The notes beneath the pieces are model-generated. The model searched no databases, was not told the DNA's origin, and was given only the letters and a program-made list of their open reading frames with translations. A DNA stretch of 64,000 nucleotides, taken from the IMG/VR virus record IMGVR_UViG_3300023116_000009, positions 64,001 to 128,000 of that record; one strand, written 5' to 3'. Of this stretch, positions 6,726-19,888 are shown in pieces. The number at the start of each line of letters is the position of its first letter. The first letter of the stretch is position 1. The position numbers and the translations under genes were made by a program. This DNA comes from a virus.

Positions 6726-6810
6726 CGGAGAGTCAGGGATTCGAACCCTGGGAGGTGTGACCCTCGCTGGTTTTCAAGACCAGTGCCATAAACCACTCGA
6801 CCAACTCTCC
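6726..6810 (-). tRNA. tRNA-Ser(TGA)
   Basis: Cloverleaf GGAGAGT...ACTCTCC, anticodon arm CTGGT-CTTGAAA-ACCAG, long variable arm, GGTTCGAATCC. Confidence 0.95.
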
Positions 6811-8224: not shown

Positions 8225-8260
8225 ATTATACCGAAAAAAAGAGAGGGTGTCAACCCTCTC
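8225..8260 (-). promoter_or_regulatory. sigma70 promoter overlapping a terminator hairpin
   Basis: Perfect TTGACA-N17-TATAAT; GAGAGGG-TTGACA-CCCTCTC followed by a T run. Confidence 0.75.
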
Positions 8261-8274
8261 TGTCTACAAGTAAC

Positions 8275-8439
8275 TCACTTATTATAAGTGTGACCACGAT
8301 AACAGAATGTACCGTGGGTCTCATCGACTCCTTGCTTACACTCATACTTGACACCACGATAGGATGTCATGTGAATTTGTGCATCATGAAGTGCAGATGC
8401 CTTTTGGATCTGCTGGCGAATGAGGTTAAGTGTGTTCAT
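8275..8439 (-). CDS. DUF4278-like small protein (54 aa)
   Basis: Hand translation MNTLNLIRQQ...MTSYRGVKY...GTFCYRGHTYNK with repeated YRG; AGGAG RBS. Confidence 0.7.
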   Translation of the reverse strand: MNTLNLIRQQIQKASALHDAQIHMTSYRGVKYECKQGVDETHGTFCYRGHTYNK

Positions 8440-8472
8440 GATTTTACTCCTAAAAGAATGGGTGAATTAACT

Positions 8473-8692
8473 CCCGTTCCTTCAGTCGTTTGCGTCCTAT
8501 GCCTCTAAAGAAAAGCATACAGGATCAGTATGATCCATCCATTTAAAGATAAGTTCGACCTTTTCAGATGGACTAAAAAGTTCGGACTCTAATATTCCTT
8601 GAGATAACCACTCAAAGTCCTCACACTTTAAATAATCTGAAGATGGGACATGAGTAGCGAGTAGTAAACTGAGAAATAGCATAGGATGAACG
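8473..8692 (-). ncRNA. glutamine-riboswitch-like element 2 (split by a nested ORF)
   Basis: CGTTCATCCTATGC ... GCATAGGACGCAAACGACTGAAGGAACGGG; P1 CGUUC/GAACG; upstream of a DUF4278-like gene. Confidence 0.6.
8497..8682 (-). CDS. hypothetical 61-aa protein nested in an RNA motif
   Basis: ORF track; hydrophobic N-terminus. Confidence 0.55.
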   Translation of the reverse strand: MLFLSLLLATHVPSSDYLKCEDFEWLSQGILESELFSPSEKVELIFKWMDHTDPVCFSLEA

Positions 8693-8694
8693 CT

Positions 8695-8754
8695 CCGTTC
8701 CGCGACTTACTTGCGTCTCATTCGCTATTCGCAAACAGCGAATGGGATGAACGA
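8695..8754 (-). ncRNA. glutamine-riboswitch-like element 1 (glnA/Downstream-peptide class)
   Basis: TCGTTCATCC-[11-bp hairpin]-GAGACGCAAGTAAGTCGCGGAACGG; P1 CGUUC/GAACG. Confidence 0.6.
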
Positions 8755-8797
8755 CAGGTCTAGTATAGACCACATCAACTATTTAGTCAAGTGGTCT

Positions 8798-8905
8798 TTA
8801 TTTTTTCTTCCCCCCGTTCTTAGCTTTCTTCGCAGTCGCGTTGCCCTGGTTCTGCTTCTTGTTGTTCGCAGTGCCCTTCTTGCCCTTGTTTGGTGACTTG
8901 GACAT
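8798..8905 (-). CDS. 35-aa lysine-rich peptide
   Basis: Hand translation MSKSPNKGKKGTANNKKQNQGNATAKKAKNGGKKK. Confidence 0.5.
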   Translation of the reverse strand: MSKSPNKGKKGTANNKKQNQGNATAKKAKNGGKKK

Positions 8906-18306: not shown

Positions 18307-18378
18307 AGCGGGTGATCGGAATCGAACCGACGACATCTAACTTGGAAGGATAGCGTTCTACCGCTGAACTACACCCGC
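18307..18378 (-). tRNA. tRNA-Gly(TCC)
   Basis: GCGGGTG...CACCCGC acceptor stem, loop CTTCCAA, GGTTCGATTCC. Confidence 0.95.
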
Positions 18379-18411: not shown

Positions 18412-18627
18412 TGCACGCCACCTGTTTTAGTTTCAGTTGCAAAACAGGAAATCAACCACACGGAAGGGGTCGTTTGGATCCACCACTTGCTCTTTGACTG
18501 GAAGCAAGAAACCAGGCGGGGAGAGATATCCCATCCGCACCACTTGTTCTTATGGAAAAACAAGAAACCCGAGGGGTCGTTAAACCCATCCCGACCAGGG
18601 CGCTTTTAGCGTCATCCCGAGACGTTT
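18412..18627 (-). ncRNA. manA-like structured RNA
   Basis: Three repeats of UUUCYUG-hairpin-CARGUGG, intergenic and directly 5' of a tRNA; family assigned from memory. Confidence 0.6.
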
Positions 18628-18901: not shown

Positions 18902-18975
18902 TCGGGACGACAGGATTCGAACCTGCGACATCTCGCTCCCAAAGCGAGTGCTCTACCAAACTGAGCTACGTCCCG
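18902..18975 (-). tRNA. tRNA-Pro(TGG)
   Basis: CGGGACG...CGTCCCG acceptor stem, loop TTTGGGA; TTGACA-N17-TATAAT promoter at 18990-19018. Confidence 0.95.
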
Positions 18976-19739: not shown

Positions 19740-19811
19740 TGGGCGAAGAGGGATTCGAACCCCCGACTGCCTCGGTGTAAACGAGGAACTCTACCGCTGA
19801 GTTATTCGCCC
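19740..19811 (-). tRNA. tRNA-Val(TAC)
   Basis: GGGCGAA...TTCGCCC acceptor stem, anticodon arm CCTCG-TTTACAC-CGAGG. Confidence 0.95.
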
Positions 19812-19888
19812 TGGCGTCTCAGGAGGGACTTGAACCCCCGACCAACTGCTTAGAAGGCAGATGCTCTATCCAACTGAGCTACTGAGAC
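19812..19888 (-). tRNA. tRNA-Arg(TCT)
   Basis: GTCTCAG...CTGAGAC acceptor stem, loop CTTCTAA, encoded CCA; abuts tRNA-Val. Confidence 0.95.

Follow-up and report, generated by a model that had tools for sequence, protein, structure and literature searches.

The leader of a small cyanophage operon described here is, on covariation evidence, a three-way junction of the glnA type in which a second, permuted glutamine-like core lies within the P2 stem. We consider it probable that this RNA serves as an interlocked double glutamine-riboswitch leader, glutamine-ON for a downstream DUF4278 gene, in which folding of the sensor and translation of a gene nested inside it exclude each other. The DNA analyzed (the window, 64,000 nucleotides) is part of a 186-kb record of a T4-like cyanomyovirus. 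The element and its transcription unit are made up of the following features, in order of transcription:

8762-8790, minus strand: sigma-70-type promoter, -35 TTGACT at 8790-8785, 17-nt spacer, -10 TATACT at 8767-8762 (10/12)
8749-8753, minus strand: outer P1 5' strand, CGUUC ("a"), partner 8479-8475
8717-8747, minus strand: P1a hairpin of the outer core, 11-bp stem with UGCG loop, strong covariation in relatives
8708-8716, minus strand: J1, ACGCAAGUA, E-loop side of the outer junction, C8713 being the proposed linchpin partner of G8474
8703-8707, minus strand: shared P2 5' strand, AGUCG, partner CGACU at 8488-8484 (Rfam CM placement)
8688-8700, minus strand: inner P1' hairpin, GAACG 8700-8696, loop GAG 8695-8693, CGUUC 8692-8688
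8679-8686, minus strand: inner P1a' 5' strand, UCCUAUGC, with the AUG (8682-8680) within it, partner 8502-8495
8497-8682, minus strand: nested protein-coding gene, 61 aa (phrog_13397, E=2.4e-23; open frame, dN/dS)
8495-8502, minus strand: inner P1a' 3' strand, GCAUAGGA, with the UAG stop (8499-8497) within it
8489-8494, minus strand: J2, CGCAAA, inner-core junction, C8492 being the proposed linchpin partner of G8695
8484-8488, minus strand: shared P2 3' strand, CGACU (CM placement, covariation)
8474-8483, minus strand: GAAG (E-loop side), outer P1 3' strand GAACG (8479-8475) and linchpin G8474
8447-8485, minus strand: predicted expression platform, CUGAAGGAA at 8485-8477 with UUCUUUUAG at 8458-8450 (RNAfold, -14.3 kcal/mol)
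8275-8439, minus strand: DUF4278 (IF17-like) gene, 54 aa, two YRG motifs, SD AGGAG at 8451-8447 (phrog_545, E=3.5e-32)
8240-8261, minus strand: intrinsic terminator, 9-bp stem then T run, closing a transcription unit of ~520 nt

Evidence of wide distribution is apparent. The locus was matched by blastn in 419 cyanophage records, and exact-pattern scans of IMG/VR gave at least 120 matches in each of two scans, placing the arrangement far beyond chance. Covariation was judged on a base of ~300 related phage loci. A first set held 160 unique elements among the matches listed, including 146 unique ORF-bearing ones; a second, less biased set, chosen solely by the junction GGAACGGAUCGUUCAUCC, held 173 unique elements among the matches listed; and a 40-sequence alignment, deliberately enriched for variant sequences, had members related by descent. 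ORF-free, one-ORF, and two-nested-ORF versions all exist among the related phages: among the matches listed in the second set, 45 elements have no ORF, 87 have one in the second hairpin, 17 have one in the first, and 24 have both. Compact relatives carry a 6- to 21-nt hairpin loop in place of the ORF. In contigs from RNA libraries (runs X15 and X19; region 8495-8686), the core halves are only 6 to 27 nt apart. These metatranscriptome contigs derive solely from relatives, and they attest to occurrence in RNA libraries rather than to transcript starts or levels; those with closely joined halves are ORF-free relatives from the same waters and not products of splicing.

Read along the minus strand, the RNA opens with CGUUCAUCC at 8753-8745, an 11-bp hairpin, and ACGCAAGUAAGUCGCGGAACGG at 8716-8695. 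After a 2-nt linker, AG, comes a second CGUUCAUCCUAUGC at 8692-8679, whose CGUUCAUCC strand occupies 8692-8684, and then, beyond the nested gene, GCAUAGGACGCAAACGACUGAAGGAACGG at 8502-8474, containing the second 3' half, GGACGCAAACGACUGAAGGAACGG, at 8497-8474. An earlier note on this DNA had placed the motifs, the 61-codon ORF (8682-8497), and the DUF4278 gene (8439-8275) on the minus strand exactly where we find them, and had interpreted the motifs as a tandem pair of aptamers, an interpretation that the pairing does not support. In the swapped pairing proposed here, outer P1 joins the first CGUUC (8753-8749) to the last GAACG (8479-8475), the first GAACG (8700-8696) forms a hairpin with the second CGUUC (8692-8688), and the helix AGUCG/CGACU (8707-8703 / 8488-8484) is shared by both halves. 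The swapped closing pairs are kept in 40/40 sequences of the variant-enriched alignment, with 5 and 9 double changes and one U-G, whereas the closing pairs of a tandem arrangement are broken in 9/40 and 10/40 of the same variant-enriched sequences. The outer P1 closing pair is C-G in 34, U-A in 5, and U-G in 1 of the 40 (broken, 0/40), and that of inner P1' is G-C in 31 and C-G in 9 of the 40 (broken, 0/40). Among the matches listed, the 160 unique elements tell the same story: the first GAACG becomes CAACG solely alongside a change of the second CGUUC to CGUUG, and the last GAACG becomes AAACG solely alongside a change of the first CGUUC to CGUUU. The inner flip co-occurs with several nested-protein types and linkers, a pattern suggestive of recombination or of more than one event; the outer P1 change is seen in one lineage, with one wobble intermediate. 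The junction hairpin GAACG-GAG-CGUUC, previously proposed as an alternative structure sequestering the P1 strands, is real and never broken in the 40 sequences, but with the swapped pairs kept in all of them, it is the native inner P1' and not a sequestering alternative.

The remaining helices vary in the same manner. Changes in P2 occur in concert on the two strands (AGUCA/UGACU, GGACGG/CCGCCC, and AGCCAACU/AGUUUGCU), and the duplex energy with an element's own partner averages -4.07 kcal/mol, versus -2.28 for cross-partners; one common P2 variant, with AGCCGACU on both strands, can pair only with two A-C mismatches. P1a shows 14 to 24 double changes per pair in 50 sequences. Inner P1a' carries compensatory changes that span ~190 nt, its fourth pair being C-G in 27 and U-A in 13 and a UCC/GGA stretch changing to GUC/GAC, so that the covariation looked for in orthologues of the start/stop helix is indeed present. 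Enclosure of the ORF by an aptamer stem, as the earlier note had it, is thus borne out, although the helix corresponds to P1a and not to P2. RNAalifold, run on 50 compact elements with no guidance, predicted outer P1, P1a, the inner hairpin, and P1a'.

As described in PMC6212724, which cites Ren et al., the type 1 linchpin is a long-range G-C pair, G23-C60. Cellular type 1 switches, all of them single aptamers, read ACGG...GAACGC in 33/33 cases from 151 Cyanobacteriota genomes; the phage reads ACGC...GAACGG, so that in phage elements the linchpin orientation, at a position assigned by alignment and not by structure, is nearly always reversed, C...G instead of G...C. Four unique elements, among the matches listed, combine J1 ACGG with GAACGC at the outer 3' end only; in the same four, the inner junction ACGC and the inner 3' end GAACGG are unchanged. 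Confinement of this change to the outer core fits a conserved pair, the proposed long-range linchpin following the swapped topology. The inner linchpin C...G is present in nearly all of the 173 unique elements among the matches listed, with A instead in three. The inner core is a circular permutation that shares P2, has junction strands resembling those of type 2, and is devoid of E-loop sequences. Given this absence and the three relatives without the linchpin C, glutamine binding may not take place there.

To place the element within known families, we compared it with Rfam models. At gathering thresholds, no glutamine match was found in the window; at relaxed thresholds, the first motif scores 15.8 bits against RF01739 (E=1.7, cut-off 35) and 13.6 bits against RF01704 (cut-off 33). 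For ORF-free orthologues, the RF01739 scores are 43.6 and 39.6 bits, exceeding the cut-off of 35, which makes the lineage a homologue of type 1 glutamine riboswitches; model scans miss the window copy because the nested gene splits the element. The relation to glutamine riboswitches suggested earlier accordingly stands, and the cmsearch comparison suggested with it succeeds for natural ORF-free orthologues and fails for the window itself. Compact relatives score 25.9 to 27.2 bits on RF01704, below its cut-off of 33, and neither the cut-off score of type 2 (RF01704) nor its 3' pseudoknot hairpin enclosing GGAACGG was found for the phage element. In the RF01739 alignment of compact copies, the CM links the opening 5' half (CGUUCAUCC, the hairpin, GGACGCAAGUA, AGU) with the closing 3' half (ACU, GAAGGAACGG) and treats 38 nt between them as an insertion in P2. 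Once the outermost halves are joined, the type 1 three-way junction is complete, with P1, P1a, P2, and the joining strands ACGNAAGUA and GAAG. The element derives from a glutamine riboswitch, a family relation that applies to the lineage and not to the window copy as scanned.

On the evidence of its reading frame and substitution pattern, the nested ORF is a real gene. Among the matches listed in the first set, a frame is open from the same AUG position in 146/146 unique ORF-bearing relatives, starting at +10 or +11 from the second CGUUCA and running into the 3' half; over both sets, the offset of the AUG from CGUUCA is +10 to +12 in 204/204 ORF-bearing loci among the matches listed. Loop lengths vary almost solely by multiples of three, the median dN/dS is 0.44, and mismatches by codon position (.47/.32/.57) make third positions the most variable. 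Aligned, the products form a single family that has a hydrophobic N terminus and two conserved Cys. An AF2 model of the protein is a small helical fold (pLDDT 86.6), for which nothing was found among PDB folds at E<=0.001; in a viral fold library only uncharacterised cyanophage proteins resemble it, and a search for homologous proteins returned four metagenomic relatives.

The signals of this gene are interwoven with the RNA core. The AUG lies in the 5' strand, and the UAG in the 3' strand, of the helix UCCUAUGC/GCAUAGGA (8686-8679 / 8502-8495). In 132/146 elements among the matches listed, the stop codon is an invariant core UGA (GACUGAAGG); the window-type ORF ends 15 nt earlier, at the UAG in the P1a' stem. 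The sequence GGAG, formed by the inner 3' end and linker, is found in 134/146 ORF-bearing versus 1/8 ORF-free elements, and the GGAG at 8696-8693, 10 nt before the AUG, is likely the SD of the nested ORF; an SD of its own inside the loop was seen in one relative only (L370). About one-quarter of the relatives have a second nested ORF inside the P1a hairpin, that is, the first hairpin, which is homologous to the nested ORF and again has its AUG at +10. In Synechococcus phage RN05-S (L010:499-1071), an HNH endonuclease gene sits between the first GGAACGG and the second CGUUCAUCC, a position that is the inner P1' hairpin loop of the orthologous element.

At the 3' end, the outer core would control the DUF4278 gene. 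The platform strand UUCUUUUAG overlaps the first two bases of the SD AGGAG (8451-8447), and an inner GGG/CCC stem forms between the two platform strands. In 103/112 unique relatives, CUGAAG(GAA) is fully paired to CUUCAG or UUCUUUAG directly 5' of the DUF4278 GGAG. The platform hairpin belongs to the unconstrained MFE of the whole leader and is incompatible with simultaneous formation of outer P1 and the E-loop. This arrangement is what a translational ON switch would have, in accord with the published glutamine-ON switch on gifB/IF17 and DUF4278 genes (PMC6212724), and the leader is predicted to be a glutamine-ON translational switch of the DUF4278 gene. Some relatives, L001:720-760, L016, L019, and L055 among them, contain an extra conserved module between GGAACGG and the anti-SD strand, consisting of AAACGGAUCC, a covarying 4-bp stem capped by a GNRA-like loop, and then GAGAAGGUUAAU; it is absent from the window.

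The window protein scores 22.2 bits against Pfam DUF4278 (PF14105; E=1.8e-4), slightly below the cut-off of 25.3, and 39/41 orthologues match PF14105 at E<=0.01 (best E=1.2e-9), in agreement with the DUF4278-like gene with an AGGAG RBS that had been noted earlier. Both YRG motifs are invariant among the orthologues, and comparison of a DUF4278 profile with PDB sequences gave no meaningful match. GUUCAU, at 8752-8747 and 8691-8686, is an exact complement of AUGAAC (8439-8434), with which the MNT-type DUF4278 gene begins, and in the window MFE the 5' end of the leader pairs with this gene start. As the match is not conserved where the DUF4278 gene starts MAKV, it may be due to chance.

In ~100/136 unique relatives, the -10 box ends 7 to 9 nt before CGUUC, and we infer a start near 8755, 1 to 2 nt before P1. 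The leader would open a two-gene mini-operon on a host-type (early) transcript. No NtcA box (GTAN8TAC, up to 1 mismatch) was found near the promoter, whose -10 box is flanked by an inverted repeat, GGTC TATACT AGACC. Just upstream of it (8798-8905, minus strand) is a 35-codon ORF for a very lysine-rich peptide, MSKSPNKGKKGTANNKKQNQGNATAKKAKNGGKKK, with no Pfam match. At the other end, the loop of the terminator hairpin (8225-8261, minus strand) contains a -35 box, TTGACA, with TATAAT beyond a 17-nt spacer (12/12), and this combined terminator/promoter cassette, which resembles the promoter-early stem-loops of T4-type phages, serves the next gene (8204-7875). Farther away on the minus strand are a wcaG RNA (RF01761, 86 bits) at 18472-18572 and five tRNA genes, at 6726-6810, 18307-18378, 18902-18975, 19740-19811, and 19815-19888.

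Comparison with known systems clarifies what is shared and what is distinct. The type 1 gifB/IF17 leader of Synechocystis (RF01739, PMC6212724) has the same CGUUC/GAACG P1, P1a hairpin, P2, and E-loop strands (A-C-G-N-AAGUA and GAAG); it too precedes a DUF4278 gene, and its 3' strand can likewise pair near the RBS, as befits an ON switch. In the phage, unlike type 1, P2 closes a whole second core instead of a hairpin, and a stem-loop holds a protein gene with its start codon in the stem; none of these phage features, including the reversed linchpin, was found in the 33 cellular type 1 examples. Type 2 (RF01704, the Downstream-peptide motif of marine picocyanobacteria) shares CGCA...GGAACGG and the C...G orientation, and like the phage inner core it has no E-loop, a helix-flanked GGAACGG, and DUF4278 "downstream peptides"; the phage inner core differs in its permuted strand order and in having no 3' pseudoknot hairpin of the type 2 style. 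Published tandem glutamine riboswitches (Weinberg 2010, PMC2864571; Sherlock 2022, PMC9481103) also have two aptamer-like units head to tail, but those units are independent and pseudo-cooperative, whereas the phage element has swapped, nested pairing and a single expression platform. Homing-endonuclease ORFs in the loops of group I and II introns likewise place a long-range helix around a functional ORF, with ORF-free versions coexisting; intron ORFs, however, have their own initiation signals in peripheral loops, in contrast to the phage gene, whose start codon and often stop codon are in the ligand-sensing core.

Outside phages, the arrangement was not seen in the collections searched. The junction GGAACGG-N2-4-CGUUCAYCC gave at least 120 matches in genome contigs, attributable to chance and mostly non-cyanobacterial, with no true element among the matches listed. 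Nor was the interlocking junction found in 401 Cyanobacteriota genomes, where 12 matches, about as many as in a reversed-pattern control, included none with aptamer context. Phages are generally regarded as poor in riboswitches. A survey published in 2017 recovered just two glutamine aptamers from cyanophage genomes (PMC5473149), and the literature mentions glutamine riboswitches of T4-like cyanophages in passing; we found no published description of strand-swapped pairing or nested genes in glutamine riboswitches.

How might such an RNA operate? Without glutamine, the outer-core 3' strand CUGAAGGAA would pair just 5' of the DUF4278 RBS, keeping translation of the IF17-like protein low. Glutamine would lock outer P1 and the E-loop and free the RBS region, so that the DUF4278 gene would be switched on in the manner of the Synechocystis gifB riboswitch. 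Initiation on the nested gene would require P1' and P1a' to be open, and in most relatives a ribosome finishing that gene would cross J2 and P2 and stop at the core UGA. Because initiation and termination there open core stems, folding of the sensor and nested translation should exclude each other, with reciprocal or gated output from a single RNA as the expected consequence. Energetics qualify this picture. The fully folded double core is 15.7 kcal/mol above the MFE in the nearest-neighbor model, and the ON state would consequently need tertiary and ligand energy or kinetic control. Since P1' and P1a' are already part of the MFE, which lacks the outer core, glutamine might contribute little to repressing the nested ORF, and after synthesis of the 3' strand the nested AUG may be occluded whatever the ligand state. 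On this modeling, the nested gene may be translated mainly cotranscriptionally.

A bolder version of the interlocked switch can be offered only tentatively: both cores would bind glutamine, sharing a helix in a pseudosymmetric strand-swapped fold with two outputs, as the commonest riboswitch of marine phages. Equally tentative is its second half, in which glutamine switches on a phage protein resembling an inhibitor of host glutamine synthetase and shuts off, or is gated by, nested translation. If true, the expression platform of this riboswitch would be a coding sequence in its own stem-loop.

It seems unlikely, on balance, that the riboswitch governs DUF4278 only and that the nested ORFs are passenger cassettes in tolerant loops with no regulatory link, even if all four ORF states are common (45, 87, 17, and 24 unique elements among the matches listed), an HNH endonuclease gene occupies the P1' loop of one relative, and P1a length is free in cellular switches also, ranging from 12 to 55 nt. 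Just as unlikely is the accompanying proposal that such cassettes are shuffled via recombination between near-identical repeated core sequences. Against this reading stand an AUG always 4 to 6 nt within the stem (204/204 loci among the matches listed), an SD inside the loop in L370 alone while the P1'-loop GGAG tracks the presence of the ORF, and the invariant core UGA as the stop (132/146 among the matches listed). With the AUG in the stem, the SD in the P1' loop, and the stop in the core, physical interference is unavoidable whenever the ORF is translated.

More doubtful still is nested translation as a timer or reset, in which a ribosome trailing the polymerase would hold the inner stem open and free the 3' core strand at the UGA. 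Release after the anti-SD strand had been made would, in this improbable scheme, let thermodynamics decide repeatedly between the aptamer and the anti-SD hairpin, where otherwise the decision would be made once, cotranscriptionally. The stop codon within the core in 132/146 elements among the matches listed, the anti-SD strand only ~30 nt downstream, and an ON fold much less stable than the OFF fold by nearest-neighbor energy are compatible with such a device. The scheme is, however, purely inferred, the window ORF ends 15 nt before the core UGA at the P1a' UAG, and ORF-free phages do without it.

That two glutamine aptamers simply stand in tandem as an independent, pseudo-cooperative pair, the second tolerating a long loop, is highly improbable: the halves are each aptamer-like (motif 2 taken by itself reaches 34.1 and 30.1 bits against RF01739 and 26 to 27 bits against RF01704) and 157 glutamine doublets are classed as tandem in PMC9481103, yet its closing pairs are the broken ones in the variant-enriched alignment (9/40 and 10/40, against 0/40 for swapped pairs), linchpin and P2 covariation fit the swapped topology, and halves only 2 to 4 nt apart leave no space for a first expression platform.

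The interlocked leader that we favor is present in more than 400 cyanophage records though model scans miss it. It represents a natural strand-swapped double aptamer in which the start and often the stop codons of a protein gene are part of the sensing core, making the interplay between translation and riboswitch folding directly testable. It suggests that, early in infection, cyanophages gauge host glutamine so as to set the dose of an IF17-like protein, and this phage protein may act on host glutamine synthetase.
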